Shown piece by piece: positions 18,041 through 63,356 of a stretch of 64,000 bases of DNA. The stretch is from contig VRMN01000001.1 of NCBI GenBank assembly GCA_008690995.1, positions 124,001 through 188,000 of the forward strand. Reading direction: 5' to 3'. This DNA is from Porphyridium purpureum. Its lineage: Eukaryota. Every line of letters starts with the position of its first letter. Position 1 is the first letter of the stretch. The translations under genes were made by a program, and so were the position numbers. Under the pieces are notes generated by a model. The model was not told the origin of the DNA, made no database searches, and saw only the letters and a program-made list of their open reading frames with translations.

Positions 18041-19183
18041 CTAAGCGCCCTTTACATTCGTCGGACGAGACAAACAGTACAGTTCTATTTTCTCCTTCGC
18101 AGGGCCCCAACCTTGATCTGCAGCCTTGTAAAGCCAGAACGCTGCGATACGGGTGTCTTCAGGGAGGCTAGCTTCTCCGTGGTAATACAACAAGCCCAAA
18201 AGTGTCTGTGCAAGGTCGTAGCCTTGGTCTGCAGACTTGCGGATCCAGTACACAGCTTTGGCCTCGTCCAGCGGAACGCCTCCTTTACCGTGATACAGCA
18301 TCACACCCAGGTTGAACTGCGCTTGGTGATTTCCCAGCTTGGCGGCTTTGCGAGTACACACAATTCCCTTTTCAGTGTCGTATTTCAGGCCTCCGGTTTC
18401 ATTCATGTAATTGACGGCCATCTCAAACAGCGCTCCGGCATGATCCTGCTTCGCAGCTTTACGATACCACTCGACCGCCGCTTTTGGATTTTTTTCGGCG
18501 CCTCGTCCTTCCTCAAAAGCCATGCCGACGCAGTACTGCGCCTCGGCGTTTCCTTGCTGTGCGGCTTTCAGAAACCAGTCGAACGCCTTGAAGTGATCTG
18601 ACTCGAGACCGCATTCTCCCTTTTGATATGCGACGGCCAAGACGAGCTGGGCAAGCACGTATCCAGCATCTGCCGATTTTCGAATCCAGAGCAGCGCCTC
18701 AGTAGAGTTTCCTTTGTCCTTCTCTCGTAGCCCGCGCTGGCACCACGCCTCGCTTTCGTCACCTACTGCTTCCTCGCTTGCTGGCGCTTGCGGAGCGGGC
18801 GGATTCGGGTCTGCTTCGCGTTCAGCATGATTCTCAGATTTCGCGGCATTCAGAGTTGCCTTGACTGGATCGTACGGTGGTAGTGTGTTGGAACTCGACG
18901 CTTCACGTTGAGAATCCCTTGGGCTGTCATTACCTACAATCACTCCCGTCAAACGACGAGCCGAGTGTGACGACGCCCGCGTGATAGACACAAGCCTACC
19001 CGCACGCATTGCTGCGACTCTGCTCGTCGACGACGCTACGGTTCCGAATCGCGCTGGAGTCACGCTTCCGCGAAGCCAATCTCGCGGCGTGCTCCACACC
19101 GGCCCGCCACACGCAACCGTATCTCGCGTGCACGAACGCACGACCGCGCCGCGCGCGACGCGCAAGCAGCTCACGTTCCTCAT
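18041..19183 (-). CDS. SEL1-like repeat protein, probable mitochondrial presequence
   Basis: 380-aa ORF with about 5-6 SEL1 repeats (GNAEAQYCVGMAFEEGRG...) and an Arg-rich N-terminus. Confidence 0.92.
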   Translation of the reverse strand: MRNVSCLRVARGAVVRSCTRDTVACGGPVWSTPRDWLRGSVTPARFGTVASSTSRVAAMRAGRLVSITRASSHSARRLTGVIVGNDSPRDSQREASSSNTLPPYDPVKATLNAAKSENHAEREADPNPPAPQAPASEEAVGDESEAWCQRGLREKDKGNSTEALLWIRKSADAGYVLAQLVLAVAYQKGECGLESDHFKAFDWFLKAAQQGNAEAQYCVGMAFEEGRGAEKNPKAAVEWYRKAAKQDHAGALFEMAVNYMNETGGLKYDTEKGIVCTRKAAKLGNHQAQFNLGVMLYHGKGGVPLDEAKAVYWIRKSADQGYDLAQTLLGLLYYHGEASLPEDTRIAAFWLYKAADQGWGPAKEKIELYCLSRPTNVKGA

Positions 19184-19321
19184 TCCGTCCGGCTCTCCTC
19201 CACGTGCCGCACCACGCGCATGCTCGACGCTGTTTGCACTGCGGAACGTTGCTATGTCGATTGGCGAGTGCAGCAGTCTGGATATTTACGGAGCGAGCTG
19301 GTACTGCGGTCGGTAGCAGCA

Positions 19322-19648
19322 ATGGTCGGACAATGGCGCACACAGACGCGCGGCGCAGCGTGCGCGGCGCTGTTGTGCTTGTACGCCTGGGCCTGCTCGG
19401 CGAGAAATGTGTGGATGTCGGAGTACGCGAGGCGCGTCGTGTTTGCGTTGCCGGCGTACGCGTTCGTCGTTTTCTGCTGCTTTGCGCTGGCAAACGTGGG
19501 CGTGGGTCTTGCGACATTTCCGGAATGCCCGCATGAACTAGTGCTGCTTCAACAAGATCTCGCGGAAGCCCGTGCGGAGCTAGAGCACGCCGACGTGTTT
19601 GGATCTGCAGCAGAGGACGAAGCCGCAACAAAGGCACGGAACAGTTGA
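19322..19648 (+). CDS. DPM3: Dolichol-phosphate mannosyltransferase subunit 3
   Basis: Two hydrophobic helices followed by 'LPAYAFVVFCCFALANVGVGLATFPECPHELVLLQQDLAEARAEL', the DPM3 pattern. ATG at 19322 is in frame. Confidence 0.8.
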   Translation: MVGQWRTQTRGAACAALLCLYAWACSARNVWMSEYARRVVFALPAYAFVVFCCFALANVGVGLATFPECPHELVLLQQDLAEARAELEHADVFGSAAEDEAATKARNS

Positions 19649-28136: not shown

Positions 28137-28414
28137 TGTAGTGTACACTGGGTGTACACCTCGTGGCTGTGTACAGTATGGGTAGAGGAGCGCGCCGCGA
28201 TTGTAAGCGGCCGGAGAGCGTGGACGGTCTCACTAGCCCGCTCTTTCGGGTAAGGAGTGTTTTCTTGGAGCGTGCTCGTCGACTACCAGTAAAGCTGTGT
28301 TTGTTGGTTACTGCGGCACTGCCACACCCTTCACGCGCACACGAACAGCGCGTACGCGTGAGCTCGATCGCCGCACCACTCCGTTGGCCATCGAGGAGGA
28401 CGTATTCCTCTACT
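28137..28414 (+). repeat. 5' LTR (TGTAG...CTACT)
   Basis: Direct repeat of 33718-33995. Confidence 0.97.
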
Positions 28415-28429
28415 CACGCTCCAAGAAAA
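28415..28429 (+). promoter_or_regulatory. Primer-binding site complementary to the element's own LTR (28260-28274)
   Basis: CACGCTCCAAGAAAA abuts the LTR end and is the exact reverse complement of TTTTCTTGGAGCGTG. It has no TGG start (complement of tRNA CCA). Confidence 0.85.
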
Positions 28430-28462
28430 TCTGAGAGTCTGCGACACCGGTGACAAACGAGA

Positions 28463-29572
28463 ATGTCACGTGTCGGACAAAGCGGCGCAGGCCGTTCGCC
28501 GCACCCACGCGAAGCCGGTCTTGTAGAGACACTTCCGCTGCTCACTTACGACAGCACGCGTGTGGTGCCGGCCGCGGTGGTAGTTTGGGTCGAGGAGCTC
28601 GGCAACTACTGCAAGAAGGAATACGGCGCTATCGGCACAGCGTTTGCGATAGAGCGCCAAGGACGCGTGTACCCCACCTTGCCGACGATCCCGCAAGCAA
28701 CCCCAGGGCTCGGGGAGGCGGGACGGGAGGATTGGTACAGCGCCACCGTCGCCAAGGAAGAGCTCAAGCTGGCGCTCGCGGCGCGCTCGGACGCGATACG
28801 CAAGGACAAGGAAACTCGCGTGCGCGTGTTTGGACTCATCATGGGCCAACTGAGCCGCGCATCTAAGGAAGCGCTGGCCGTAAAGCCCGGCTGGAGTCAA
28901 CTCGTACGAGAATCGGACGATCCGCTGCAGCTTCTCGAGCGCGTGATCGAGGCGCACCTGACCCGTGGCTACGACGACCCGCTGCGTAACCAGCAGTATG
29001 CTCGCATGTCGTACGATCAACTGAGAGTTGGAGCAGACGAATCACTTGTTTCGTTCAAGACGCGCTTCAAGGCAGCGGTGATGGCCCTTGAAGCCGTGGG
29101 CGAACCAGTGCCGTCTTCCGAGCGCTGCGCGGCTGACTTTATCCTAAAGCTTGAAGGTACGCGCTGGGACGAAGCCGTACGCAAGTGCAACAACGAGCAC
29201 CGACGGTTCGACACGGTCGACCAGGCAATGTCTTTCATGGCGCAGTTCGCGTACGCGAAACAACCGGTACAGGGTCGCACTTGGCGGACGGACACCGAAC
29301 ACCCAGAAGACGAGGACACAGATGATGTGGAGCTCGCAGCAGCACCACGCGTACGCGAATGCTACAACTGCGGCGCGGATGATCATCTCCTTCGCGACTG
29401 CCACGCGCGACCGCTGGACAGCGGAATGGCCGATAGGATGCGCGCGGCGAAGGAGAGGCAGGCGCGCATGGCGAGGCGCGACACGCGCGGACGCGGGCCG
29501 GTGCTGGCCGGGGCGACGGAGCAACAGCTGCGGGCCGCACTTGACGCGTTGAAAAGGAACGCCGATGCATGA
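28463..29572 (+). CDS. gag: Copia Gag with CCHC zinc knuckle
   Basis: 369 aa; 'CYNCGADDHLLRDC' knuckle; ends in TGA in frame with pol. Confidence 0.93.
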   Translation: MSRVGQSGAGRSPHPREAGLVETLPLLTYDSTRVVPAAVVVWVEELGNYCKKEYGAIGTAFAIERQGRVYPTLPTIPQATPGLGEAGREDWYSATVAKEELKLALAARSDAIRKDKETRVRVFGLIMGQLSRASKEALAVKPGWSQLVRESDDPLQLLERVIEAHLTRGYDDPLRNQQYARMSYDQLRVGADESLVSFKTRFKAAVMALEAVGEPVPSSERCAADFILKLEGTRWDEAVRKCNNEHRRFDTVDQAMSFMAQFAYAKQPVQGRTWRTDTEHPEDEDTDDVELAAAPRVRECYNCGADDHLLRDCHARPLDSGMADRMRAAKERQARMARRDTRGRGPVLAGATEQQLRAALDALKRNADA

Positions 29573-32500
29573 CGGTGTGCGACGTGGCCCACGGGCTTCG
29601 GTGACGAGATACCTTTGGGTCTCGACACCTGCTCGGGTGTTCACGTCATGAAGGATAAGGGGTTAGTCCATCGGGTAAAGAAAATTGACGAGTATTTGCT
29701 GCTGTCCGGAATTGACGCGCGGGCGAGCGAGCTGGCCATCGGGCACGGCGGTGAGACGGCCTTCGGCATGGCGTACGTCAACGAGAACCTTGCAGGCAAC
29801 GTGCTGTCTATGACCAAGCTGGTCGCGGAAGGGCATGATGTACGCTTCGACGCGGATGAGAACCGCTTCCGCGTACGCGTGCCGAACTCCAAGCGCTGGC
29901 TGGTCTTCGCGCCCGATGCACACGGAATGTACACTGCGATGATACGGCGTGCAGATCTCGTGCACACGACGGGCCCAGCATACAAGAAGGCAGCCACGAA
30001 TAAGGACAACCGGAACAGCTGCCGGGCCGGTCCATCGTCTGCCAAGGCTTGGACCTCAAGCACAATCACGACGGTCGCCAGCAACCTTGCCCGATGCACG
30101 GTACGCGAGGTTGAACGCGCACGCGCCGCTCGCTCTCTGCAGGCGAGGCTGGGATTCCCATCCTTTGGTGTGCTGAAGCGCATGCTTCAGCGCGGGGACA
30201 TAAGCAACTGTGACGTCACGTCGGCGGACCTCGAGCGTGCGAATGCAATCTGGGGCACTCCACTGCCGTGTGTGAAGGGAAAGACAACGGGACACGCGAC
30301 ACCGAGGCTGTCTGAAACGGTCACCACTGGTCCCAAAGCGCGCCAGGTGATGCACTCCGACCTGATGTTCATCTCGAAGGTGCCTTTCCTCGTGTCGGTC
30401 TTGAAACCGAGTCAATACATCCTGGCCACCGAGCTGAAGCGGAAGGACGCGCCTTCGGTGCGCGCGGCGGTGCAGCGGCGGTTGAACGAGGCCCGCGGGC
30501 ATGGAGTGCAGATACCTGAGATTCGGTTCGACCGTGAAAGCGCAGTCCTGTCGCTCTGGATCGAGTTGATGGAGGCCGGCATCCTGCCCGAGCTAACCGC
30601 GGCAGACGAGGTGGTGCCCGCCGCTGAGCGAGCGATTCGCCTTCTAAAGGAAAGGGTCCGCACATTGTCGTACGACCTGCCGTACACCATGCCATTATGC
30701 ATGCTGCCGGGAGCCGTGGAGTTCTCTCGACAGAGACTGAACATGGTGACGAGCGAGGCCTCCGACGCGGGCGAACCGGCGCACGCCATCTACTTTGGTC
30801 GTAAAGTAGACGCGAAGACGGACCTACGTGCTCCATTCGGGGCGTATGTCCAGGCACATACAGCGTCCGTGGACAGCACGATGAGGCCCAGAACGTTGGG
30901 CTGCCTCACCCTGCATTCCGCCGAGAATGCTGCGGGAAGCTGGGTGCTCATGAATCTGAACACACTGAAGCCCATCGTCAGACAGGTGTGGACAGAGCTC
31001 CCGGTACCGGACCACCTGATCACGTACGTAAATGCGCTCCCAACCGTGGCAGGCATCGACGATGGCGATCAGGACCTCGGCCGCACGGAGGTGGAACTCT
31101 CGCAGGAGGAAGACAAAGAGACGGCGGAGGTCGAGGCGGCGCTGAAAAACGGCGGGCCGGTCGACGAGCCAGCGGCGGAGGGGCACACGTATCTGGACCA
31201 GCCAGAAGACGCGGTACTGCGTGAACAGGCGCAGACTCCGACACACGCCGACACCGATCACCCCGCACCGGCGGGCGCCGACGTGCTGAGTAAGGATGAG
31301 TCACCGTCCACTCCCACGCAGTTGCGCATGGAAGAGATGCGACGTGCAGCGGATTCACTCTTCGAGGCGGGGCGAGCAATGACGCCAACGACTGCGGAAG
31401 CGACCGGCGAGGGTCTGCCAAGCACGGACGCAGTACTGCCGGAGCCGCTTATCGTGGCAGAATCTGTGGAAACCCATGTGCCCGAGGAAGAGGCGTCGAC
31501 TGATCCACCCGCTACTGCCGCACGGCCGCACGGCGACGCCACAATCACCAGTCCGGACGCTTCAGACGGCGAAGCGGCCTTGACCCCCTCGGTCGCCGAG
31601 GTGACAATGGAACAGGCCAAAGCGCGGGTGGAAGCAATTGAAGAGAAGCTGCGAGCGCTGGAGGAACGTGAGGCGCGTCTGCTGAGTCAGATGACCACGG
31701 AGCCATCGTACGCGGACGCCGTCCGAAATGCGGTACCGCGCACGAGCGAAGCCGAGCATGCCCGCGCCGTCAGCTCTCCGCGTCGGACACGGAAGCGGAA
31801 AGCAGAAGGGACATTCCCGGACGTCGAGCGCGAAAAGAATGAGCGGCTATCGCGCCGCGAGAAGGAACGCCTGCGTGTACGGCGCGCGCCGGAGGTCGTG
31901 GTCGCCCTGAAACGAGAGGCGGAGGACTTGCTATCTTCTGCGATGCCGGGAAAGCGCAGACACAAAACGCTGAGGATCGGCGTACGCCAGGCGATACGCC
32001 AATACGGTATGGAAGGACTCAAGGCGATTGTCGCTGAGCTGTTGCAGCTGTCCAAGCACGGTCTGGACGTGCTGGAGCCGGTCCACGTGCACACGCTCAC
32101 GAAGAAACAACGAGACGGGATCATACCGTCGTTCATGTTCGTGAAGGAGAAGCACGATGCTTCAGGCGCCTTGGAGAAAATCAAAGCACGAATGGTGGCC
32201 GGCGGGAACGAGCAAGATCGATCGGAGTACTCCGACTGTTCGTCCCCCACGGTGGCGACCGAGGCTATTTTCTTACTGGCAGCCGAGGCAGCGAGAAGCG
32301 GTGCCGCAGTCGCCACGATTGATTTCCCCGGGGCATTTCTCAACGCAAGCATCCCCGACAGCGACCCACACACGTACGTGAGGATCAACAGAAACCTGAC
32401 CGGGCTGCTCGCCGCCGTAGATAAGCGCATGAAGCAGTTCGTCAAGAACGGTGTTCTGGTCTGCAGGTTGAAGCGCCCGTTGTATGGATGCATCGATGCG

Positions 32501-33631
32501 TCCAAGCGTTGGTATGACCACCTCTGCGAAATGTTGAGCGAGCTCGGATTCGAACAGAATGCTTACGACGCTTGTGTCTTGCGGAAAGTCTCCCGTACGG
32601 GCGAGCCTTCCGTCACAGCGCTTGTGCACGTGGACGACGTGAAGCTGATCGCAGAAAGCGAGCAAGCGATTGATGAAGTGGTGGCGCGCGTACGCGAAAG
32701 GTTTCCGTCGCTGCAGGAGCACCGAGGGCGCACACACAGCTACCTGGGGATGGAGTTTGACTATACCTCCCCGGGGGTGGTGCGCATCGGGATGGGCGGG
32801 TTTGTAGACTCTTTACTGCGAGAGAATGACGTACGCGGTACCGCAGACACGCCCGCTCAAGCCGGGTTGTTCGTGGATGACGAGTCGCAGTTACTGACGT
32901 CGCACGACAAGGAGGCGTTCCACAGCGCCACCGCAAAGGTACTATACCTCGCGAAGCGCATACGCCCGGACCTGCTCACTGCGGTAGCGTTTCTGGCTAC
33001 GCGAGTACAGGCCCCGGGCGAGAATGACCGCGCGAAGCTGACCCGCCTGCTGAGGTACCTCAACAAGACGCGAGACATGAGGCTGGAGCTGGGCACGGGT
33101 TGGGTTGCAGACGAGCGCGAGCCCGATTGCGCGAGCCATGCGGAGCCGCACGTAGAGTGCTATGTCGACGCCTCATTCGCGACACATGCGAACATGAGGA
33201 GCCACACGGGTGGCGTTGTGAGCCTGGGCCGCGGCGCGGCGTACGCCACCAGTGTCAAGCAGAAGCTCAACACAAAGAGCTCCACCGAAGCGGAACTGGT
33301 GGGCGTGAGCGATGTGATCGGGCAAGCGATATGGACGCGGAACTTCCTCGAGGCGCAGGGCATCCGCACAGCTGGCGTACGCCTACACCAGGACAACGAG
33401 GCGACCATGTCTCTCCTTGCACACGGTCGGGCGACCTCGCGTAGGTCGCGCCACATCGCGATCAAACACTTCTTCACGCACGATCTGCTGAAGAGGCGAG
33501 TCGCGACGATGGTACATTGTAGCACCGAGGTCATGATCGCGGACCTGCTGACCAAACCGCTGCAGGGAAAGAGGTTCGCACACCTCCGTGATATGATCCT
33601 CGGGCGTGCGCCGACAGCGCAAGAACCGTAG
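29573..33631 (+). CDS. pol: Copia Pol (protease-integrase-RT-RNase H), in frame with gag after one TGA
   Basis: PR 'GLDTCSGVHV'; INT 'MHSDLMF..IRFDRES..AERAIR'; RT 'KIKARMVAGG..IDFPGAFL..PLYG..HVDD'; RH 'YVDASFA..KSSTEAELV..QDN..IADLLTKPL'. Open from 29573 to the stop at 33631. Confidence 0.95.
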   Translation, partial: RCATWPTGFGDEIPLGLDTCSGVHVMKDKGLVHRVKKIDEYLLLSGIDARASELAIGHGGETAFGMAYVNENLAGNVLSMTKLVAEGHDVRFDADENRFRVRVPNSKRWLVFAPDAHGMYTAMIRRADLVHTTGPAYKKAATNKDNRNSCRAGPSSAKAWTSSTITTVASNLARCTVREVERARAARSLQARLGFPSFGVLKRMLQRGDISNCDVTSADLERANAIWGTPLPCVKGKTTGHATPRLSETVTTGPKARQVMHSDLMFISKVPFLVSVLKPSQYILATELKRKDAPSVRAAVQRRLNEARGHGVQIPEIRFDRESAVLSLWIELMEAGILPELTAADEVVPAAERAIRLLKERVRTLSYDLPYTMPLCMLPGAVEFSRQRLNMVTSEASDAGEPAHAIYFGRKVDAKTDLRAPFGAYVQAHTASVDSTMRPRTLGCLTLHSAENAAGSWVLMNLNTLKPIVRQVWTELPVPDHLITYVNALPTVAGIDDGDQDLGRTEVELSQEEDKETAEVEAALKNGGPVDEPAAEGHTYLDQPEDAVLREQAQTPTHADTDHPAPAGADVLSKDESPSTPTQLRMEEMRRAADSLFEAGRAMTPTTAEATGEGLPSTDAVLPEPLIVAESVETHVPEEEASTDPPATAARPHGDATITSPDASDGEAALTPSVAEVTMEQAKARVEAIEEKLRALEEREARLLSQMTTEPSYADAVRNAVPRTSEAEHARAVSSPRRTRKRKAEGTFPDVEREKNERLSRREKERLRVRRAPEVVVALKREAEDLLSSAMPGKRRHKTLRIGVRQAIRQYGMEGLKAIVAELLQLSKHGLDVLEPVHVHTLTKKQRDGIIPSFMFVKEKHDASGALEKIKARMVAGGNEQDRSEYSDCSSPTVATEAIFLLAAEAARSGAAVATIDFPGAFLNASIPDSDPHTYVRINRNLTGLLAAVDKRMKQFVKNGVLVCRLKRPLYGCIDASKRWYDHLCEMLSELGFEQNAYDACVLRKVSRTGEPSVTALVHVDDVKLIAESEQAIDEVVARVRERFPSLQEHRGRTHSYLGMEFDYTSPGVVRIGMGGFVDSLLRENDVRGTADTPAQAGLFVDDESQLLTSHDKEAFHSATAKVLYLAKRIRPDLLTAVAFLATRVQAPGENDRAKLTRLLRYLNKTRDMRLELGTGWVADEREPDCASHAEPHVECYVDASFATHANMRSHTGGVVSLGRGAAYATSVKQKLNTKSSTEAELVGVSDVIGQAIWTRNFLEAQGIRTAGVRLHQDNEATMSLLAHGRATSRRSRHIAIKHFFTHDLLKRRVATMVHCSTEVMIADLLTKPLQGKRFAHLRDMILGRAPTAQEP

Positions 33632-33717
33632 GGCGTACGCATCGTCTCGTGTGACTCGCTTCGCCGTCGGGTGGCTTGTGTGGAGCGGGTGGTAGCTTCC
33701 ATCGCGGCGAAGGAGTG

Positions 33718-33995
33718 TGTAGTGTACACTGGGTGTACACCTCGTGGCTGTGTACAGTATGGGTAGAGGAGCGCGCCGCGATTGTAAGCGGCCGGAGAGC
33801 GTGGACGGTCTCACTAGCCCGCTCTTTCGGGTAAGGAGTGTTTTCTTGGAGCGTGCTCGTCGACTACCAGTAAAGCTGTGTTTGTTGGTTACTGCGGCAC
33901 TGCCACACCCTTCACGCGCACACGAACAGCGCGTACGCGTGAGCTCGATCGCCGCACCACTCCGTTGGCCATCGAGGAGGACGTATTCCTCTACT
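33718..33995 (+). repeat. 3' LTR
   Basis: Identical to 28137-28414; preceded by purine-rich GAAGGAGTG (putative PPT). Confidence 0.97.
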
Positions 33996-38692: not shown

Positions 38693-38806
38693 ATATGTAG
38701 ATCCATGTAGTGGATTCAAGAAACACAGTTCTACGTACGTACCGTACATCTACTTGACATGAAATGTTTCGCGTCGTTGCTTGGACTTGAACGGCTTTCC
38801 CAAGCA

Positions 38807-39703
38807 TCACTGCTCAGGAACCTCGTTGCGAACATAGCCAAGTGTGCGTTCAAACTCCATAATCTCGTCGCGATGTCCCTTGATATATACGGTGTTTGGT
38901 TCGCCGGGCGTCTCGGCCTCTTCGATGAGAAGCTTGACCTGCTCGATGCGCTCGGCGCCGCGCCAATACCACGGCACAACAAGTGCAGATACGGGTGTGA
39001 TGCCCCACCAGTAGACGGAACGGTACTCATCCGGCAAGAAAGTGTTCAACAGGACCACCAGCGAGCCGAGCCCAAGCGCAAGGCAGCTGAACAAAAGGCC
39101 AGCAATGAAGTATGACGGCGAGACGAGGCCTTCAAAAGTGACCACGCCCGGGCGCGTGTCGGCTTGTGCGTTGATTTTGTATGCGCGGCTCGCAAAGTGC
39201 TGCGCACACGCTCGCGCCATGGCGCCCGGCTCGCCTTCCACGGAGTAATTGTGCTGCTCGATGCGCGGCTTGGTTGAGCCCTTGACAAACGAGATGAGGC
39301 CCCAGAATGTCAAAAACCACACGAGCGCCGTGATCCCCAAGCTCCGCAAATTATCGTCATCGACTGCGCCCAGCATCTGCAGATGCCGTGCAGTCGCACT
39401 TACGTCTGGTATGGCTGGTGCGATCACAGACAAATCAGACGCCGATTCCACGCTCAAACCCATAGTCACTGCGCGCGACGTGGCCTTCACGCTACGAGAT
39501 CTACCGCTAACTGCCGCTCCCCCGTGCACGCGACTGGATGCATTCACAGTGCGCGTGAACGCCACATGCTGCTGCAAACAAGACGCAGGACACAACGCGC
39601 CGGCTCGGCGAGCCACATGCGGCGCAGTGGCTGGCACAAACGCGGCGGCGGCGGCGGCGGCGGCGTGCACAGGTCGCTCACAACGCGGCGTCTGGATCTC
39701 CAT
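38807..39703 (-). CDS. CCB1: Cofactor assembly of complex C subunit B (cytochrome b6 heme ci attachment)
   Basis: Transit-peptide-like N-terminus, three TM segments, and 'GLISFVKGSTKPRIEQ', 'FEGLVSPS', 'RIEQV', 'KGHRDEI'. Confidence 0.85.
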   Translation of the reverse strand: MEIQTPRCERPVHAAAAAAAAFVPATAPHVARRAGALCPASCLQQHVAFTRTVNASSRVHGGAAVSGRSRSVKATSRAVTMGLSVESASDLSVIAPAIPDVSATARHLQMLGAVDDDNLRSLGITALVWFLTFWGLISFVKGSTKPRIEQHNYSVEGEPGAMARACAQHFASRAYKINAQADTRPGVVTFEGLVSPSYFIAGLLFSCLALGLGSLVVLLNTFLPDEYRSVYWWGITPVSALVVPWYWRGAERIEQVKLLIEEAETPGEPNTVYIKGHRDEIMEFERTLGYVRNEVPEQ

Positions 39704-39820
39704 GACGCGCCACGCTCTTTCCTACTCACGCAGCGCACTGCCAGCAACCCAGTTGCGCGGCCAAATCACACCCGACCCACGCCAACACACTCACAGACAC
39801 AGCATTAACCGACCTTTGGC

Positions 39821-39823
<3 letters not shown>

Positions 39824-39853
<30 letters not shown>
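39824..39853. repeat. (CT)15 microsatellite
   Basis: Direct reading; lies between the CCB1 start and the LTR insertion. Confidence 0.95.
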
Positions 39854-39856
<3 letters not shown>

Positions 39857-39884
39857 CAATCTCAACCTTCCACCTCGCAATAAA

Positions 39885-40198
39885 CGTGGGAACGATGAGG
39901 TCCCGCTGAACCGCGGACTCCCGTGTTCACTTGGCCGGCGGTGCGGCATAAGTACGTTCTGTGGAGCGGCCGGGTCCCGGCCGGATAACTAGCGAAGATA
40001 AGAGACTCTTTAGCGTGGTGAGGTAAAGGTTCGTCGTTTATTCGGAGCGATAGGGAGCCGGCGCAGAATCGTCTGCGCGCCTCGAAGAGTCCGCCATATT
40101 AGTGGCCCACGTGTTGCACGTTTCGCCGTGCGCACCCGCACCCCTTTCGGGCGTAGCATCGATCTTTCTCGGCCGATCCCTTGGAGCACCTCTCCAAG
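39885..40198 (+). repeat. 5' LTR (CGTGG...CCAAG)
   Basis: Direct repeat of 45134-45447. Confidence 0.96.
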
Positions 40199-40213
40199 GG
40201 TTATGAGCCCAGC
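40199..40213 (+). promoter_or_regulatory. PBS complementary to the anticodon stem-loop of initiator tRNA-Met (half-tRNA primer)
   Basis: GGTTATGAGCCCAGC abuts the LTR. Its complement GCUGGGCUCAUAACC contains anticodon CAU, the same PBS type as Drosophila copia and yeast Ty5. Confidence 0.88.
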
Positions 40214-40495
40214 GGCGGAAGCCGTCTGCGCGTATATTGATCACATGCTTAACTTCGTGTTCGCTTGATCGGTCGTGGGTTTATTTGGTTTGTATCATCT
40301 TTGCTTCGGGGAGTTGGCTCGTGTGGAACGTCGGGTGTCAACTTCGGACGCGGTCGTTGTGTCTCGCTTGACATCGACCCCAACCGCGATACGGAGCTCG
40401 TGAGTGATAGAATCAAGAAGCGAAACAGTCCATCGCCTGGACCATCACGAGATCGTCGCGCCAGGAGGCGGACCTCGTGATCATAACTGTCGGTC

Positions 40496-43400
40496 ATGGA
40501 CGACCGTGAGCAGGAGCAGTCACGTCTGCGCGCAATTATGGCAGCGAGACAGCAATCGTTGGAACCACAACCTCTGCAGCAGGGTGGAGGTACGCAAGGC
40601 AATGCACAGGCTGGTCCATCGCCGACCGAGTTTGACATGTTGATGGCCAGGGTGAGAGCGGAATTATCCGCCGACTTACGCATGGCACAGCAGCGCATTG
40701 AGGGTCTGGAGAGCGATTTGGCGCACGAAAGAGCAGCGCGATCGGCTTTGGCGTCCGCGGGCGCGGGGCAGGTGGTTCATCAGCGGGGAAAGTTGCTTGA
40801 ACCTGCACGTATGCCGGCGTATGACGGGAAAAGAGACCTAGTAAAGATCCTGACGTGGATTTCGGCGGCTCGCGACCGAGTGATTGAGCCGTACAAGGAC
40901 GAAGTCGCGGCGGTTGGCGAATCTTGGGACGACGCAGCCGAAAAGAGGGTCGTTCGAAACCTCGCTGGGTTCCTGACGGATGACGCGCAGTTGTGGTGGA
41001 TTCGCCTGAGGGAGCAGCCGTTCACGGTTGAAGCATTTCTAGCCGCGCTCGAGATGCGGTTCGCCCCGGTGAACCCAGGCGCTCGGGCTAGAGATGAGCT
41101 GTTCGCGTTGGAGCAGAATAGCACGAGCGTGGAAGAGTATACAAATACTTTCTCCTCGCTCTGTCTGCGCATTGAAGACGCCACAGAGTCTGAATTGTTC
41201 GACAAGTACAAGCGAGGGCTTGACAAGGACATTAGGGTGCAAACCGAACTTAAGGGCACATCCAGCTTGGAAGAAGTTATCCGCGTAGCTTCGGAGATCG
41301 ATGCCATCATGCACCCGGAACGCGCCCGGACTGCCAAGAAAGGGCAGACGCCCTACGGGGACGGACCGGCTCCCATGGAGCTGGGCTCCGCTGAGCGCGG
41401 CGGGAAAAGCGTAGGTGCTGGCAGCGGCGGTAAAAGAAAGAGTGGTCGAAAGAAGTGGAAGGCTCGGGACAGCGGGAGGAGAGATGGTCTGAAAAAGGAT
41501 CAATGCGCCAACTGCAAACGCATAGGGCATTGGAAAAAGGATTGCCCGGAGCTCGCCGCACAGGCGGCTGAGCTGGAACTACTCACTGCGAGCACCAGAC
41601 CAAAAGTCGAGAGGCTTGTGAAGAGAAAAATGTGGGTGAATGGTCACCAAGTCGACGCAGTGTTTGATACAGGCGCGACGAACACATATGCTTCGCTCGC
41701 TTTCTGTGAGAAAATTGGTGTGGCGGTGGACCGGCGCGCTGCCGTGGGAGGAGTTCGCTTGGCGGATGGTACCATGTGCAGGCCCGAAGGGACCGCGCGC
41801 CTGACGTTGAGAATGCATGGGGCTCGGGATGCAAAGTTGTCCGCGGTGGTACACAGAGCGCGTCACGAGCTCATAGTGGGCCTGGACTGGCTGAGGGCGC
41901 AGAAGGCGCATTTGTCCGTGGGAGGCATGGAACTACTCAGCACGGATGCGGAGAAAATCAATGAGAAGCCCAATGAGCCAATTAGAGCCACAGAGCCGGT
42001 GAGGGTTCTGGACCACGACCTTTTGCATATGCCTGCGAAGGAAGATTGTGGGATTTGTGCCCTGGGCAAAATACAGAGAGTGCGCGCGGTGCGTCGCAAA
42101 GAGAGTGACTCCAATGCAATCATCGACTTTAATGAGGCCGTCTCCATTGATCTCGTGGACCCCTCCTCGGTTGGTGTGGATGGGACGAGATGGGTTCTGG
42201 TACACAAAGACATCGGAACGGGCTGGGTCTCTGTGACGGGCCTGAGGAATAAACTCGCCGACACGGCCTCGTTCGCGTTTCGAGAGATACAGCGGGGCCG
42301 CGGTTGGCCTCGGCTGGTGAAAAGCGATGGCGGCGGAGAATTTGGAGGTGTTTTCGAAGACATGCTCCGAGACCACCTGGTTGCCCACGAAAAGGGCATA
42401 GCGAGGCGTTCAAACACGCATGCCAGTCAAGAGAGGCTTCACAGGGACATGAATGCGACGGTGAGGGCGCTTCTAATCCAGTCCGGGTTGCCATCGTCAT
42501 GGTTCTGCTTCGCGGCTCGGTATTGGGCGGATGCTCGAAATCTCGTTTGGGCTGGGCGCGGAGGCGGTACCACCGCGTACGAGAAACGATTCAATACTAA
42601 ATGGAAATTGGAGCTGCCTGCGTTTGGCCGGGGCGTCGTAGTTTACGACGAGGCTTCCGACAAGAATGAACCGAAGGGCTCTGTCGCAATCGTGGTCGGT
42701 TTTCGGATACCAGAATCAGCAGTCATCAAACAACGACTGAATTGCCTGGTGATCCCTGTTTCAGATATGAGGCCGGCAGCGGCGCGATGGGTACAAGAAT
42801 GGAAACTGCTCAAAGAAAAGTATCCCGTCGTAAGAAAACAGCTCAGGCCCGTTGAAGAAGAATTCGCCCGCCCGCCGGACCCTAAACCAGTTGCTGACGA
42901 CGAGGGGCAGCAGTACCCTGGAAGCGGTAGGAATGATAAGAGCGACGAGACCGGCGAGACCTCGGAAACCGAGCCGCCGGCCGACTCAAGAGAGAAAAGT
43001 AATGAGATAGAAACAGGTTTCAAAGAATGCGTACGTGCAAGCGAAACAGAAGCGCCTCCGATGGGGCCGCTCGCGACAGTAGACGGTCGATCGCGAAAGG
43101 GCTCGTGGAGCAGCGAGCAAATTGCGGCTATTTCGGGCGGCTTCACACGACTGGGTCCAAAGTGGTCGCAAATTATCAAAGAGAGTAAGGCCGCCTTGGC
43201 TGGTAAAACAGCGAAAGACGTGCGCTCGAAAGCGCAGGCGCTCGGATTGCTCGGCTCACAAGCCCAAGGTCTTGGCGAACACAGGCGCGGGAGGAGCGGG
43301 GCCTTGCGGCGCGCGAGGGTGAAGTTCGTAGAAGTTGCGGAAAAAGGGGTGTCGGCGCGGGCAGAGAAGGTCAGCGTGCCTCTTGCCGGAGCGACGGCCT

Positions 43401-45088
43401 TAGTTCAAGAGCTGCTGGTAACGCAGGTGATCGAATCCAAGAGTGCCATGGCCTCGAGTGCCGGTCGCGATGCTTTTGTCCGCGAGTTGACCGCGTTGAG
43501 AAGCGTCGGCGCGCTTCCGCTGGAGAAAGCGGTCGAGCGCAGAACGGCGACGCGAACGCCGCACGCACAGTTTGTGAAGCTGAAGGCCGTGTTCGGAATC
43601 AAAAATGCCGAACTAGGGCCCAGCGCGTGGAAACACAAGTGCCGACTTGTGTGTCAAGGGTGCGTGGTTAGAGACGCAACCGGAACCCTGGTTGTGAACC
43701 CATTTGATTGGGAGAAGCCGCCTGGTTTAGTAGCCATCAGGGCCGCATTAAGCGCAGCGCTGTTGGAGCACGGAGAACAGGCTGACGCTGCGTTCTTCGA
43801 CGTGGACAACGCATACGTACACGCGCCCCTCGGGGGTCCTCCGACATTCGTCGAATTAGCCGGTCTTACTCGCTGGTTGAGAGGTTGCATACCGTCCAGT
43901 CTGTCGTCAAAGCTCGAAGCCATGGAGAGGCCCGTCGTCAGGCTGCCCATGGCGCTGTATGGCTTGCCACGCAGCGGAAGCGACTTTGGAGCTCACGCAC
44001 GGTCAAGACTTGAAGGTCTGGGTTGGAAAGAATCCGCCTCAGATAAGAACGTATACTGGAGAAAGCGAATGGGTAAGACGGAATGGACAGTCCTATACGT
44101 TGATGATGGGGCGGTTTTCGGTGACAGTGGGGCAATACGGGAGGCGGTTGCGGAGATGAAAAAGGAGTTCTCTATCACCCGCGCGATTGAATACATGCGC
44201 GAAGCGACAAAAGAAAACCCTGTGCGGTTCCTGGGCATCGGGTTCTATGTCGACAAAGACATGGACGGTGCCTGGGTGATGAGTTCACGAGAGTATGCAC
44301 GGCATATGCTAGCAGACGGTCAAGAGAGGCAGGCGCGAAAGACTCCGATGTCTTGTAAACCTGAGCCCGACAGAGATGGCGAGGTCTGTGACAAGAGCGT
44401 GAGACGCACCTTGGGGCGTATTTTGTGGCTGGTTCGGACAACCAGGCCAGATCTGGCATTCGCAGTTGGTACGGTAGCGCGCTGCACGGATCGCTGGGGT
44501 GAAGAAGCCGAAAAGGGCCTGAACGACATCATGCGGTACCTGCAGGGCAGTGCCGATGCGGTGTTGGTGTTTCGCGTGCCACCTCTTTCGGGTGCCGGCA
44601 GGGCCTTGCCTGTGTCTGTATCTTGTTATACTGACGCAGACTTCAGCGCAGAGAGGTCGACTAGCGGCGTGTGCACTTTCTTTGTTGGTAAGAATACGAG
44701 ACACCTTGTGGACTGGTCAAGTGGGCGGCAACGCCGGACCGCGACCTCAACCGCCGAGGCGGAACTGATCGCTGCACATACAGCAGTGCAGTATCGTGTC
44801 TTTCCGCTGGGCGTGTTTATCGAAGAATGGCACAATGTATGGCCAAAGGTGGCCATGTATGTCGACAATGAGACCGCGCTAAACGCGATCAACAAGGGAT
44901 GGAGTGACAAGATGTTGCATCTTCACAAGATGCAGAAAATCAGCCTGAAATGGCTGAACGAAGTGTCCAAGGACGGCCTGGCAGACTTCGTGCACGTGAA
45001 CAGCAAAGACAATCTTGCAGACGGTTTGACGAAGAATCTCGCAGTCGACTCGTTCCAAAAGCAACGCCATGGTTGGTGCGTCGTCTGA
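40496..45088 (+). CDS. Gag-Pol polyprotein: retrotransposon Gag, CCHC, aspartic protease, integrase, Myb/SANT, RT, RNase H
   Basis: Gag 'FLTDDAQLWW..SVEEYTNTF..KYKRGL..GPAPMELG'; CANCKRIGHWKKDC; PR 'AVFDTGATNTY..IVGLDWL'; INT 'HDLLHMPAKEDCGIC..SIDLV..KSDGGGEF..SQERLHR'; Myb 43094-43252; RT 'KCRLVCQG..DVDNAY..LYGL..LYVDD'; RH 'YTDADF..STAEAEL..VDN..NLADGLTK'. Confidence 0.96.
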   Translation: MDDREQEQSRLRAIMAARQQSLEPQPLQQGGGTQGNAQAGPSPTEFDMLMARVRAELSADLRMAQQRIEGLESDLAHERAARSALASAGAGQVVHQRGKLLEPARMPAYDGKRDLVKILTWISAARDRVIEPYKDEVAAVGESWDDAAEKRVVRNLAGFLTDDAQLWWIRLREQPFTVEAFLAALEMRFAPVNPGARARDELFALEQNSTSVEEYTNTFSSLCLRIEDATESELFDKYKRGLDKDIRVQTELKGTSSLEEVIRVASEIDAIMHPERARTAKKGQTPYGDGPAPMELGSAERGGKSVGAGSGGKRKSGRKKWKARDSGRRDGLKKDQCANCKRIGHWKKDCPELAAQAAELELLTASTRPKVERLVKRKMWVNGHQVDAVFDTGATNTYASLAFCEKIGVAVDRRAAVGGVRLADGTMCRPEGTARLTLRMHGARDAKLSAVVHRARHELIVGLDWLRAQKAHLSVGGMELLSTDAEKINEKPNEPIRATEPVRVLDHDLLHMPAKEDCGICALGKIQRVRAVRRKESDSNAIIDFNEAVSIDLVDPSSVGVDGTRWVLVHKDIGTGWVSVTGLRNKLADTASFAFREIQRGRGWPRLVKSDGGGEFGGVFEDMLRDHLVAHEKGIARRSNTHASQERLHRDMNATVRALLIQSGLPSSWFCFAARYWADARNLVWAGRGGGTTAYEKRFNTKWKLELPAFGRGVVVYDEASDKNEPKGSVAIVVGFRIPESAVIKQRLNCLVIPVSDMRPAAARWVQEWKLLKEKYPVVRKQLRPVEEEFARPPDPKPVADDEGQQYPGSGRNDKSDETGETSETEPPADSREKSNEIETGFKECVRASETEAPPMGPLATVDGRSRKGSWSSEQIAAISGGFTRLGPKWSQIIKESKAALAGKTAKDVRSKAQALGLLGSQAQGLGEHRRGRSGALRRARVKFVEVAEKGVSARAEKVSVPLAGATALVQELLVTQVIESKSAMASSAGRDAFVRELTALRSVGALPLEKAVERRTATRTPHAQFVKLKAVFGIKNAELGPSAWKHKCRLVCQGCVVRDATGTLVVNPFDWEKPPGLVAIRAALSAALLEHGEQADAAFFDVDNAYVHAPLGGPPTFVELAGLTRWLRGCIPSSLSSKLEAMERPVVRLPMALYGLPRSGSDFGAHARSRLEGLGWKESASDKNVYWRKRMGKTEWTVLYVDDGAVFGDSGAIREAVAEMKKEFSITRAIEYMREATKENPVRFLGIGFYVDKDMDGAWVMSSREYARHMLADGQERQARKTPMSCKPEPDRDGEVCDKSVRRTLGRILWLVRTTRPDLAFAVGTVARCTDRWGEEAEKGLNDIMRYLQGSADAVLVFRVPPLSGAGRALPVSVSCYTDADFSAERSTSGVCTFFVGKNTRHLVDWSSGRQRRTATSTAEAELIAAHTAVQYRVFPLGVFIEEWHNVWPKVAMYVDNETALNAINKGWSDKMLHLHKMQKISLKWLNEVSKDGLADFVHVNSKDNLADGLTKNLAVDSFQKQRHGWCVV

Positions 45089-45133
45089 ACCTCGAGACAG
45101 AGTGGAGTCCGGTGATTTGCGCGTGAGGAGGCG

Positions 45134-45447
45134 CGTGGGAACGATGAGGTCCCGCTGAACCGCGGACTCCCGTGTTCACTTGGCCGGCGGTGCGGCATAA
45201 GTACGTTCTGTGGAGCGGCCGGGTCCCGGCCGGATAACTAGCGAAGATAAGAGACTCTTTAGCGTGGTGAGGTAAAGGTTCGTCGTTTATTCGGAGCGAT
45301 AGGGAGCCGGCGCAGAATCGTCTGCGCGCCTCGAAGAGTCCGCCATATTAGTGGCCCACGTGTTGCACGTTTCGCCGTGCGCACCCGCACCCCTTTCGGG
45401 CGTAGCATCGATCTTTCTCGGCCGATCCCTTGGAGCACCTCTCCAAG
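45134..45447 (+). repeat. 3' LTR
   Basis: Identical to 39885-40198; preceded by short purine tract GAGGAGG. Confidence 0.96.
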
Positions 45448-45599
45448 ATAAACACTGTACTCGGTGTACTCGGTGTACTTAGTGTACAGTTGCGCCCGAG
45501 CGTTTTGTGGAAGGCCGACTTGGTGGTGAGTGTGGGAACGGCCAGTGAGTTGGGAAAAGTGGGAGTGTTGGACGCGCGAGTGCGATGCGTGGTGGAGCG

Positions 45600-46260
45600 G
45601 CGGCCGGACAGAGGTGCCGGCAAATGCGCTGATGCGCGCCCTCGTCAAACGCGACCTGGACGCTGTCAGTGCGGGTGTGTGCGCGGATGCCAAGTTGCTG
45701 CGATTGAATGCAGCGTTCGGAGGAATGAGTGTGCGCCGTTAAGCGGGATGGCTGACCTTTTGCAGACGCCGTGCCGCGGCTGCTCGCTCGCGATGCGCAA
45801 CTTTACTTCTCGAGTAGACGTATGGTCGCTCTGAATGATGGCGTATCTGGTCAGCATGGTAAGGGCATTGTCAAGGCGCTTCGGAATCCCGGTGCGGACA
45901 CGTACCAGTGAACCACCTCGAAAGTCACACTGCTAAGTGCCGTGGCGGCGAGCAGGGCGCGTGGATGTTGTCCAGTGACCCTTACTTTGAGGCACAGATA
46001 TGGCTGCTCCGGAACAGACTCGTGAAAAGACCCGCCCGACACCTCGCCGTGGAACTTACGCATCGGCATGTTGTTGAGCTGGCTTGGAAGCCGGCCTCGG
46101 TGTGAACAAGGTTTGACGTGAACGGCCCCTGTGCATAGTATGTAGCCTTGCACTGGGACTTGCTTGATGTAGAAAGAATCCTTTTGGCACATGGCGCAGA
46201 CTCAAATGCCAAGACGCACGGCGGTGACCCGCCGTTGGACAGTGGACATCTTTTCAAAGA
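45600..46260 (+). pseudogene. Ankyrin-repeat pseudogene fragments
   Basis: Frame-hopping ankyrin-like pieces with stops: 'GIVKALRNPGADT', 'PARHLAVELTHRHVVEL', 'LLDVERILLAHGADSNAKTHGGDPPL'. Confidence 0.6.
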
Positions 46261-47559: not shown

Positions 47560-48818
47560 GACGTGCTGCTTACACAACACCATCATCTAACAACCGCGCG
47601 TGTTTTGCTAGAAAAACACGGCGGCTCGAGCGTCAAATCTTAACGGTTTGCTTGGCGTTTCGGCGTTAAACCGTTAAAGAAAGAAGTACAGTGCGTACAG
47701 TAGTGGGTGGGGAGTGAAGGCGCTTGTGGTTGGTGCGCGCGGGGGAACTGGTGACAGGTGTGGAGAGTTGCGGCGGTGTGGTTGTGGAGTGGAAGACCAA
47801 AGCTCCACTGATGCGCAGCAGACATGGGCGTGAAATGCTCTGCTCGTATATGCGCAGGCGTCGGCACGCTGCGTAGTGTGTGCGGAGCTCGACACGATAC
47901 AGGCCTGGTCACGTTGACGTGTGTCTATGTGATCGTTTCCTGCAGCCGGGACACGGACGAGGGAACCTGAGGGCTGCAATTTATTATTTTTTTGCCTGAC
48001 TTTTCCTTCAGCAGGCGTGGGAACAGAGGCGCTATTCGGAATGCTGATATTCTGCTCATGTTACTGCTCCTGCTGGTGGTGATCCGGGCCAAAGCAAACC
48101 TAAATGCAACCGTAACATCGCGAACTTTGGCAAGACGGATGAGATCAGCGATCCAAACATGCGCGCGACGCGTGCAATGCAGACTCGGACTGCTGCCAAT
48201 CAAAGGGCGCGTGCAAACGTCGTGTCAAGGGGTCCCAATCTCCATCTGATTCCTTTCACTGTGTCGCTGCATCTCGCACAGCGTGACGAAATGGGAAACG
48301 AGACCCACGCATGTGGAACGTGGAGACAGAGAGAAGCGGCATCCATTCGTAGAGTACGGTACCAGTACCTGTGCGTGTATGTCTTTCCAGAGCTCGAGCT
48401 TATGCTTCGTATACTTTATTTCTCTGCAACATTACACTGTACAACACCAGCTCTTCAATGCCATAATTCACTTCTGAACCTTTGGTGGTCGTCCTTTCTA
48501 TCGTCGTTGGCGCTAACATCATCATCTCCACAACTATCATCATCAACATGAAATCTGTGTCATTCGCGTATCCCGAAACATTCTCGTTCTCCAATGACCG
48601 GCAAGTCCTACCCTTTCTTTCCGCGGCGTGCTCCATCAGCGAAGCAGAGAAGCTGTATGCGCCCATGAGCCCGGTCGAATTCTAAAACGTGGGTACCTTT
48701 GCTGCGGGCCAATGTCCTTTGCTTCCATCCCCGTGTTCTCTTCTGGCCGATACATAGGAAAGTACAGTCGATGTCCACGACCAAGATCTGGGGCCAAGAG
48801 TCCTGACGACATCTCCTG

Positions 48819-50057: not shown

Positions 50058-50431
50058 GCTCGCGCGACCATGGCGCGCGCCCTCCCACCCCCACCGACGA
50101 TCCACTCAAACCGACCCCACCCACGCACGCACACGCGCTTACTTTTCCTGCTCTCGGCCTCGCCTCAAACCGCTACCGCCACTGCGCCCGCTGCGCGCCC
50201 GCGCGGGCGCCAACGCGCGGCCCGTATCAAAACACCGCCGTTTTACTACACCCGCGCAAACGCCCCGCACCGGCTGCGCACAACCCTAGCGCCATCACGC
50301 CATCGCTGTACCTTACGGGTGTACACCTCCCGTTCCACCCCACAACCGACGCACTGTACTTCCACCGTACTTGGCTGTACTTGGCTGTACTTTGTGTGGG
50401 CGGTGTAAGCGAGGTCGATGCGTGAGAAACC

Positions 50432-61919: not shown

Positions 61920-63356
61920 AAGTGCGACCAAATCGGATAGGGGACAGTACCTCTTTCAAGTTTTACTAGTAAAATGATCTGCTTTACTATAAAAAGGATA
62001 GAGGTCCGGTGAAAAGGGAATATGAAGGAGGTCAAAACGGATAGGGGACACGGCACATTTCTGGCCATTACTCAGCCATAGAGAATCGGAATTGGTCGCG
62101 GTTTCCTTGCACGCACGCGCCTCGAAGATACGCACAGTTAAATATTCGTTTCGGCAGCGACGCGTACAAATTGGCCATCACAGGCTGGTCCAAATCCTCC
62201 CAAGCCAGTAAAATGGCATGCTTGATCTCTAGCACCGTCTGATACAGCCTTGCACCTTCGTGAACTTTGCGCGATAGTATCCCCCACAGATTCGCGATGA
62301 TATTGAAGTCCGGCGAGTACGCTGGCCAGTAGAAGCTCCACATTCTCGTCATTCATGAAATTCTTAACCAGGCGACTTGTGTGCACTGGCGCGTTATCCT
62401 GCTGAAAAACCATGTTCGGGCCGACTATCTGACGGCAGCAGTCCAGCACATTGTTCTCTCGAAGCATGGAAACATATTTTGCAGCCATAAATGACCCCTC
62501 AATAAAATGAAGGTGAATCTTTCCTCTTGCAGAAATTGCACCCCAAACCATGCATCCACCGCCGCCGGAATGTCGCGACCAAACGTCTGGAACGTCCGCC
62601 GCACGCTCAACCCACGTCTTGTGGAAATCATCGGGTCCGTCCAGGTTGAACTTCTTTTCGTCAGTGAACACATCTTCGGCCCAATTGGTCTGTTCCAGCT
62701 GATGATGCCTGGCCCAGGCCAGCCTCTTGAGTTTGCAATTGAGTGTCAGTGGCGGACAAGCTGGAATTTTGCGGTATGCATGCGTGACACTCATTGCCTT
62801 CCTGATTATCGTCAAACTTTGGATTGGTTTAGCTCCACGAATTCGCAGAGCTGCTTGAACCTGACGTGCCGTGTGAATGTTCGGAAGCTTAGCGATGTTA
62901 AAAATCTTCGTTTTGACTGCCTCAGTCAGCTTTAAAGCGTTCACATTGGCATATTTCTGGCAGTAGTCGTTTGGAGCCGACAAATAGCGGGAAACCACGT
63001 TCTTCGAGCGCCCAATTTTGGTCGCAATGGCTCTCACGCTGTTGCTCGACTCTCGGAGACCCTGGATACGTCCTTTCTCCTCGCCCGTAAGGCCAATATT
63101 GCGCCCCATGGAGTCAAAATGGAGCTCTTCACGAGCTGCGATGGATCCGCACTTTTCCGCTTACACTGAACCGCCGACGTCCGAGATATTTCGCTTCCAC
63201 GCAGTGTCCCCTATCCGTTTTGAGCCACAAATTTCGTCGTAACCGTTGTAGACGAACCCCGCCGTTCTACTTTCATAGCAGAAGATTAAAATTTACTATT
63301 AATTAACTATTTTTTCTAAACATTTTGACTGTCCCCTATCCGATTTGGTCGCACCT
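61920..63356 (-). mobile_element. Tc1/mariner DNA transposon with IR/DR-type ends
   Basis: 29-bp TIRs (AAGTGCGACCAAATCGGATAGGGGACAGT; one mismatch) with TA flanks (61918-19, 63357-58). Inner copies of CGGATAGGGGACA at about 62038 and 63205. Confidence 0.95.
62068..63109 (-). pseudogene. Tc1-family transposase, frameshifted
   Basis: HTH start 'MGRNIGLTGEEKGRI', 'FTDEKKFNLDGPD', 'FQQDNAPVH'. A frameshift near 62335 continues into 'WPAYSPDFNIIANLW', where the catalytic E position reads A. Confidence 0.9.

Follow-up and report, generated by a model that had tools for sequence, protein, structure and literature searches.

A probable Ty3/Gypsy–Ty1/Copia hybrid lineage of LTR retrotransposons in Porphyridium purpureum

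The 64,000-nt stretch of Porphyridium purpureum DNA considered here (the window; assembly GCA_008690995.1, contig VRMN01000001.1, positions 124,001 to 188,000, forward strand) contains, at 39885-45447, a long terminal repeat (LTR) retrotransposon that is very probably a hybrid of two superfamilies. Its Gag and protease (PR) group with Ty3/Gypsy while its integrase (INT), reverse transcriptase (RT) and RNase H (RH) group with Ty1/Copia, and the likely cause is an old recombination that brought in a Gag-PR cassette. This division had been proposed in an earlier reading of the letters alone (the sequence-only reading), and it stands up in the protease tree (100/100), in the profile comparison of Gag (96.6% probability) and in the INT+RT+RH tree (100/100), as set out below. 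Window coordinates are on the plus strand unless marked otherwise.

Opposite affinities of the two halves of Gag-Pol

The element has a single stop-free Gag-Pol open reading frame (ORF) of 1530 aa (40496-45088) between a 5' LTR (39885-40198) and a 3' LTR (45134-45447), each of 314 nt and 100% identical to the other, with the target-site duplication (TSD) ATAAA on both sides (39880-39884 and 45448-45452). The sequence-only reading was therefore right about an uninterrupted ORF between identical LTRs, and the motifs it quoted are all found in the translation: LTDDAQLWW, SVEEYTNTF, KYKRGL, GPAPMELG, VNG..AVFDTGAT and IVGLDWL in the Gag-PR part, and KCRLVCQG, DVDNAY, LYGL, YVDD, STAEAE and NLADGLTK in Pol, where the Copia order PR-INT-RT-RH is also as it described.

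The Gag-PR part comprises a Ty3/Gypsy-type capsid that ends in GPAPMELG (40793-41386), a CCHC nucleocapsid zinc knuckle recognized by Pfam (41504-41545) and a Ty3/Gypsy-type aspartic protease (41609-41929) with DTG at 41666 and the C-terminal motif IVGLDW. Its Pfam matches are Retrotrans_gag (E = 1.9e-9), Ty3_capsid (4.7e-7), gag-asp_proteas (2.9e-9), Asp_protease_2 (1.3e-7) and zf-CCHC (9e-5). At E up to 1, the focal protein matches none of Retrotran_gag_2, Pol_BBD, gag_pre-integrs and RVT_1; the first of these, the Copia-type Gag model, is also without a match in the related proteins P0006-P0009, P0011 and P0280. The scan with hidden Markov models (HMMs) thus gave what the chimera predicted for the 5' half, with Gypsy models of Gag and PR matching and Copia models not, and for the RT it gave a weak RVT_2 match (7e-4, below the Pfam cut-off) and no RVT_1.

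Pairwise comparisons pull the two halves apart. Gag is 39.8% identical over 123 aa (E = 1e-19) to that of P0126, a chromodomain-bearing Gypsy element of Haematococcus and the best Gag match, and the same P0126 has no significant match to the focal RT (E = 0.54) or RH (E = 0.22). P0143, a sister in Pol, is 35-36% identical to the focal RT and RH (E = 4e-34 and 1e-35), and its values against the focal Gag and PR are 0.91 and 10. A profile of the family matches the Ty3 Gag-Pol structures 7q5b and 6r22 over Gag-PR (E = 1e-8 and 2e-8) and the Ty1 integrase 7z0h_W over INT (E = 6e-9).

The family HMMs reach at most 8.5 bits (Gag) and 13.9 bits (PR) on 127 non-family Copia proteins with at least 400 aa before INT; five of 11 Gypsy loci chosen by RT patterns alone reach 30-43 bits with the Gag HMM. 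Aligned by hhalign, the family Gag profile gives a probability of 96.6% with RT-selected Gypsy Gags, 13.9% with canonical Copia Gags and 0.45% with those of the lineage that is its sister in Pol; the latter Gags in turn match canonical Copia Gags at 89%. An Atlas search with Gag-PR led to Gypsy-type protease and gag clusters (0.87-0.94), which we treat as a lead only, and a word-seeded Gag-PR search returned two proteins and missed known family members, so that it says nothing about absence.

In a protease tree of 54 rows, 10 family and 11 Gypsy proteases are separated from 33 Copia proteases with a support of 100/100; P0161, P0025, P0039 and six Gypsy loci were left out because the motif was not found in them or they were too short. 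Holding the family PR with that of the sister lineage was rejected by the approximately unbiased (AU) test (p = 0.02). According to the accessible text of Llorens et al. (PMC2774666), an ILG protease motif marks non-Copia proteases and LLS those of Copia; the motif of the focal protease is of the ILG type and not the Copia LLS. An AlphaFold model shows a capsid with two helical lobes and a retropepsin.

Several observations count against this assignment or narrow it. The 11 Gypsy proteases held together without the family were not rejected (AU p = 0.16), so the family protease may fall either inside Gypsy or next to it, and the protease tree gives no resolution within the Gypsy side. Eight of these 11 were retrieved by searches that started from words of the family itself. 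In the fold search the capsid hit the C-terminal domain of PEG10 at Z 13.8, a Copia capsid at Z 11.2 and dArc1 at Z 11.0, with a model built using Gypsy rows; since a Copia capsid comes next after PEG10, the best match, the fold does not separate the superfamilies.

The rest of Pol belongs on the other side. The Copia-type integrase (42017-42835), whose best match is 7z0h_W, has an H-X3-H-X6-C-X2-C zinc finger, a D,D35E core and an SH3-like tail; it is followed by a Copia-type RT (43493-44275; Pfam and trees) and a Copia-type RH (44363-45070; sequence comparison and tree). The INT+RT+RH tree (437 columns, nine Gypsy outgroups) places the family inside Ty1/Copia (100/100), as sister to P0140, P0141 and P0143 (97/92), elements with a Copia-type Gag and protease, and the RT+RH tree likewise places it with Copia rather than Gypsy (100/100). 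The 120 matches listed in the RT-RH search carry RVT_2 or are family members, and one of them also carries RVT_1. In a 59-row RT-RH tree, which left out P0145 and P0173, the elements with a Gypsy Gag fall within starred clades together with LLS elements.

The wide, divergent Copia lineage (P0140-P0274) to which these sisters belong emerged from a profile search across 1.84 billion representatives; it is characterized by a very short integrase zinc finger and in some members by zf-CW, CCCH or AAA domains. P0140, P0141, P0143 and others come from JGI, ENA, Logan and MMETSP records. Where the record includes the protease, it is LLS-type by eye (17 proteins). We found no published name for this lineage. 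The viral contigs searched contained no Pol relative, and a metagenome scan gave 11 distant loci, two of which were inspected and are ordinary Copia.

Origin of the mosaic and breadth of the family

How could the two halves have come together? The donor of the Gag-PR cassette would be a chromovirus-like Gypsy element and the recipient a Copia element. The primer-binding site (PBS), GGTTATGAGCCC, lies directly 3' of the 5' LTR (40199-40210) and appears to be of the half-tRNA-Met type, its reverse complement containing the CAT anticodon loop; presumably it matches tRNA-iMet. No tRNA gene was found in the 64-kb window, and thus no host tRNA there for PBS pairing. In the available portions of the plant survey underlying REXdb, priming by a half-molecule tRNA is found only in Ty1/copia (PMC6317226). 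Because a Copia-type PBS lies upstream of gag and a Copia pol downstream, an internal cassette exchange with two crossovers, at PBS|gag and at PR|INT, would account for the arrangement. Such a swap may be workable because Gag and protease would form one co-adapted module for assembly and processing, and primer, RT, RNase H and integrase another. RNA driven by the LTR would be translated as one polyprotein, packaged by the Gypsy-type capsid and cut by the Gypsy-type protease; the Copia RT would be primed by the half tRNA-Met, and the integrase would join the cDNA ends without two-base trimming, leaving CG...AG.

An improbable alternative is that the cassette came from a related carrier, either a DIRS-like or caulimovirid-like element or a host Ddi1-type protease combined with a separately gained Gag. 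The p value of 0.16 for the Gypsy proteases without the family leaves room for this, as do the Ddi1 domains that top both the sequence and the fold matches of the protease, and the trees contained no DIRS-like, caulimovirid-like or Ddi1 rows; yet Gag, the PMELG motif, CCHC and protease follow each other as they do in P0126, and the Ty3 Gag-Pol matches run across Gag into PR. Quite improbable, too, is a lineage that was the first to branch within Ty1/Copia and kept an ancestral Gypsy-like Gag and protease, so that no swap occurred. If the root lay on this branch, one change of protease type would be enough, and the first rooting test, based on RT+RH (263 columns), did not reject the placement (p = 0.19). 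The INT+RT+RH test rejected the family as sister to all other Copia (AU p = 0.014). The rows differed somewhat: P0155, P0146, P0172, P0174, P0202 and P0095 were only in the RT+RH test, and the INT+RT+RH set gained four short-finger rows. The free tree, with starred nodes, nests the family with elements that have a Copia protease. Moreover, Gag is normally the faster-evolving part, and vertical descent predicts the reverse of a Gag that is 40% identical to that of a Gypsy element whose RT has no significant match.

It is very unlikely that a diverged Copia Gag-PR merely scores on Gypsy models through convergence or overlap of profiles. The capsid fold is common to both superfamilies, and Retrotrans_gag does weakly match a true Copia protein, P0020 (E = 2e-5), but P0020 also matches Retrotran_gag_2 and Pol_BBD, which family members never do. 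The Gag of the sister lineage resembles canonical Copia Gag and not that of the family, and the protease results (the tree split and the rejected union with the sister-lineage PR) point the same way. Finally, an assembly join or a dead nested insertion is scarcely credible in view of the single ORF, the identical LTRs and the TSD. In three other runs, single contigs (4392, 3364 and 4995 nt) span Gag-PR into RT, and the build from gag to RH is common to P0280 and to P0006-P0009 and P0011, whose identity to the focal protein is 31-41%. The sequence-only reading had called this a family, neither a one-off nor an assembly join, and the independent bridging contigs and the shared build of these diverged families agree with it.

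Some relatives complicate the preferred recombination. P0284, P0293, P0294 and P0295, all of P. purpureum, make up a second class of mosaics and combine a close RT-RH with canonical Copia profiles for Gag, protease and integrase, and in P0284, P0206 and P0149 the integrase goes with canonical Copia (100/100) and the RT-RH with the short-finger clade. Since other Porphyridium families join the same RT-RH to an ordinary Copia Gag-PR-INT, module shuffling recurs; by sequence comparison, the P. purpureum genome combines one RT-RH lineage with two or more kinds of 5' half. The families with a Gypsy Gag do not form one supported clade in the RT-RH tree (91/78), and P0280 falls outside them in a quick tree. 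All Gypsy-Gag families may have a single origin, or there may have been more than one swap.

An older copy lies in the window itself. A degenerate member of a related subfamily at 4121-8834 contains Gag (4298-4834), PR (5369-5548), INT (6020-6664), RT (7281-8045) and RH (8157-8834); the sequence-only reading had claimed the same layout for this copy, and the five domains do follow in equal order at 4.1-8.8 kb. It has stops and frameshifts and, coming from a different subfamily, only 30-38% amino-acid identity to the focal ORF. Beyond the window, a protein 99% identical to the focal ORF is labelled Porphyridium purpureum, and a 90% cluster holds four copies in the assembly with an identity of about 99%; the contigs that carry them have three different lengths.

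The focal element is intact and recently inserted. A contig of X15 joins both flanks without the element, and since this is an empty-site allele, the insertion is polymorphic. In X22 the entire ORF is covered by RNA reads at a depth of 4-41, with mates in the direction normally expected of the sense strand. X21 and X23 have little RNA, and because variants of other copies appear among the reads, expression is shown at the family level only. Intact catalytic motifs, identical LTRs, the empty site and the RNA suggest that the element is functional. Over 39700-45600 of the window, X12, X14, X15 and X23 also contain internally deleted copies (in X14, 904 and 1425 nt are skipped) and pieces of diverged sister subfamilies. 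In P0292, annotated as one protein of 2313 aa, a copy of the element is continuous with a host cyclin domain, probably through a merger of gene models.

LTR ends, target sites and a Myb-like domain

In further copies the flanking sequence departs precisely at 39885 and 45447, and two of these copies have paired 5-bp TSDs, ATTCT and GCTAA; because of this, the ends of the element are taken as CG...AG. Every copy with visible ends has them, and TG...CA lies two bases further in on either side, so that the LTR starts with CG-TG and finishes with CA-AG. A 6-bp TSD, ATAAAC, was considered for the window copy and rejected, since the paired duplications of the further copies set the ends. A short purine-rich tract at 45123-45133, 5' of the 3' LTR, is the putative polypurine tract. 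Ty1, unlike Ty3 and retroviruses, leaves its ends untrimmed, according to the consulted part of one paper (PMC8487063), and the CG...AG outside TG...CA suggests that this integrase, too, may join untrimmed cDNA ends. Copia ends other than TG...CA are known; the eight lotus Copia types described in the accessible text of another paper (PMC9804982) all start with T. LTR finders based on TG...CA may miss or mis-trim elements of the present kind.

Next to the right TSD, on the minus strand, stands the host motif GTACAGTG (45453-45460, in a cluster of four GTAC), which recurs at an equal offset beside further copies. Nine insertion sites, named by their TSDs, are among the matches listed, with 18 and 55 further loose-end rows outside that listing, and in six of the nine GTACAGT(G/T) abuts the TSD on one side: ATAAA (the window), ATTCT, GCTAA, AAACA, CCCAC and CCCAT. 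In 34,978 host bases the motif has six matches on both strands together, and it was written down before two of its six sites were seen. The bases of the TSD vary among sites while the 8-nt motif adjoins it. The window copy sits in a GTAC cluster, with a minus-strand gene on one side and a plus-strand transcript on the other. The density of GTAC is 4.2 per kb in genes and 3.9 per kb in intergenic DNA, and because the two are equal, only the fixed offset carries weight. Tight intergenic GTAC clusters, possibly a host promoter element, occur at 19301-19456, 38735-38744, 45457-45484, 47686-47695, 48354-48365 and 50308-50387.

The pattern has its exceptions. At CCTTC, where both sides were seen, six of the eight motif letters agree, and TCTTC and TTTGT lack the motif on the one side seen; CCCAC and CCCAT are possibly a single site, in which case the count would be five of eight; and some flanks are consensus lines of low agreement (0.57-0.78).

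What could read such a motif? Between integrase and RT, aa 868-918 (43097-43249) are predicted to form a three-helix fold of the Myb/TRF type. The three helices are modelled at a predicted local distance difference test (pLDDT) score of 94-97, and the model superposes on the DNA-binding domain of hTRF1 (Z 8.1, root-mean-square deviation 2.3, 51 aa). Matches of this region to sequences in the Protein Data Bank are to c-Myb, TBF1 and Trf1, and the Myb Pfam E values are 0.037 for the focal protein, 3e-5 for P0004 and 9e-5 for P0011, all under the cut-off. That this domain might read GTACAGT(G/T) and steer insertions into intergenic, promoter-like DNA has about an even chance. More doubtful, but still a possibility worth holding, is the full picture in which an active hybrid of Copia enzymes and Gypsy capsid, with an integrase-linked Myb domain as its built-in targeting module, inserts untrimmed ends at a fixed spot next to GTACAGT(G/T), and in which recombination has joined one RT-RH lineage of this genome to different Gag-PR(-INT) modules.

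With regard to targeting alone, a host protein sitting on GTAC clusters may instead tether the integrase and leave the Myb domain to another role, and this deserves to be taken seriously at somewhat less than even odds. The GTAC clusters of the window are tight in intergenic host DNA, and tethering is the basis of targeting described for Ty1, Ty3 and Ty5 in the available part of a paper on the subject (PMC5408687). The Myb domain is also absent from the family members P0005, P0010 and P0280. The host tether leaves aside, however, a well-predicted fold of the DNA-binding type directly behind the integrase, and the Myb HMM reaches at least 10 bits on 15 of 278 proteins, all of them in this RT-RH clade.

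Other residents of the window include a second intact Copia-type element (28137-33995) with identical 278-nt LTRs, TG...CT ends, the TSD GGCAC, an unusual PBS and separate ORFs (28463-29572 and 29648-33631), whose Gag has no match to a Pfam Gag model. A solo LTR at 3248-3527 (minus strand), just upstream of the gag of the old copy, is 89% identical to the LTR of this element. Diverged repeat pairs at 3567-3815/12022-12254 (74%) and 2782-2830/9178-9227 (86%) are probably old LTRs. A Tc1/mariner-type transposase (62138-63109, minus strand; DDE_3 and HTH_Tnp_Tc3) lies in a low-GC stretch, and three tandem genes at 13033-19183 (minus strand) have repeats about 111 nt apart, which resemble repeats of the Sel1 type.

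Place among known elements

With Ty1/Copia (Pseudoviridae) the focal element shares the INT-RT-RH order and phylogeny, an RVT_2-type RT, a Copia RNase H and a 5-bp TSD; it differs in its Gypsy-type Gag and ILG protease, its Myb domain and its CG...AG ends. Its PBS, whose sequence fits a CAT anticodon arm, may be of the half-tRNA-Met type found in Osser, Bryco and Gymco-II (PMC6317226). With chromovirus-like Ty3/Gypsy elements (7q5b, 6r22 and P0126) it shares the capsid, the PMEL motif, the CCHC knuckle and the protease type, but it has no RVT_1, no RT-RH-INT order and no chromodomain, and its RT and RH have no significant match there. As far as sequence can tell, it would replicate like Ty1/Copia and assemble particles like Ty3/Gypsy, and it lacks a defining trait of each.

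The GalEa clade, which includes PyRE10G of red algae and CoPorcru1/2 of Porphyridium cruentum, also has Copia-order elements of red algae. In the parts of the descriptions available (PMC3587641), its members have the PBS TGGTAGCAGAGC, a zinc finger HX4HX30CX2C and TG...CA ends, and the focal element differs in all three; membership was rejected because neither this PBS nor this finger is present (PMC3587641, PMC5445492). Gmr1-like Gypsy elements share a Gypsy-type Gag-PR and INT before RT, according to the same kind of partial text (PMC3587641, PMC2774666). This assignment, too, was rejected, since they are Gypsy elements of rearranged order whereas the focal RT, RH and INT are Copia in the trees. 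Errantiviruses and Ty1, Ty3 and Ty5 likewise choose targets non-randomly, and sequence-specific integration as well as ends other than TG/CA are described for errantiviruses; in the available text (PMC5408687), however, their preference concerns the duplicated bases themselves (TATA, CGCG, ATAT) or stems from host tethers, whereas here an 8-nt motif lies beside a variable TSD.

A red-algal Copia-like element with a gypsy-like integrase was reportedly described by Peddigari in 2008, to judge by the title; there the Gypsy-like part would be the integrase, and in the focal element it is Gag-PR. The REXdb survey, in the portions available, discarded chimeric-looking elements as likely errors, and recombination between Copia lineages is published (PMC6317226). 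We found neither this build nor an integrase with a Myb domain nor such LTR ends described in the literature searched, although subscription papers, Repbase, GyDB, Dfam and supplements could contain one.

Current practice regards Ty1/Copia and Ty3/Gypsy as separate lineages with domains that stay together. A long-lived and apparently active hybrid indicates that the assembly module is exchangeable over the deepest split of the LTR retrotransposons. Since Gag-PR can cross superfamilies, a classification by RT only misses part of the history of LTR elements. Nature here also provides a test case for the features of a foreign Pol and primer that a capsid and a protease have to recognize. Finally, the motif at a fixed offset and its candidate Myb reader would, if confirmed, constitute a new route to sequence-directed integration, in an alga that can be cultivated.

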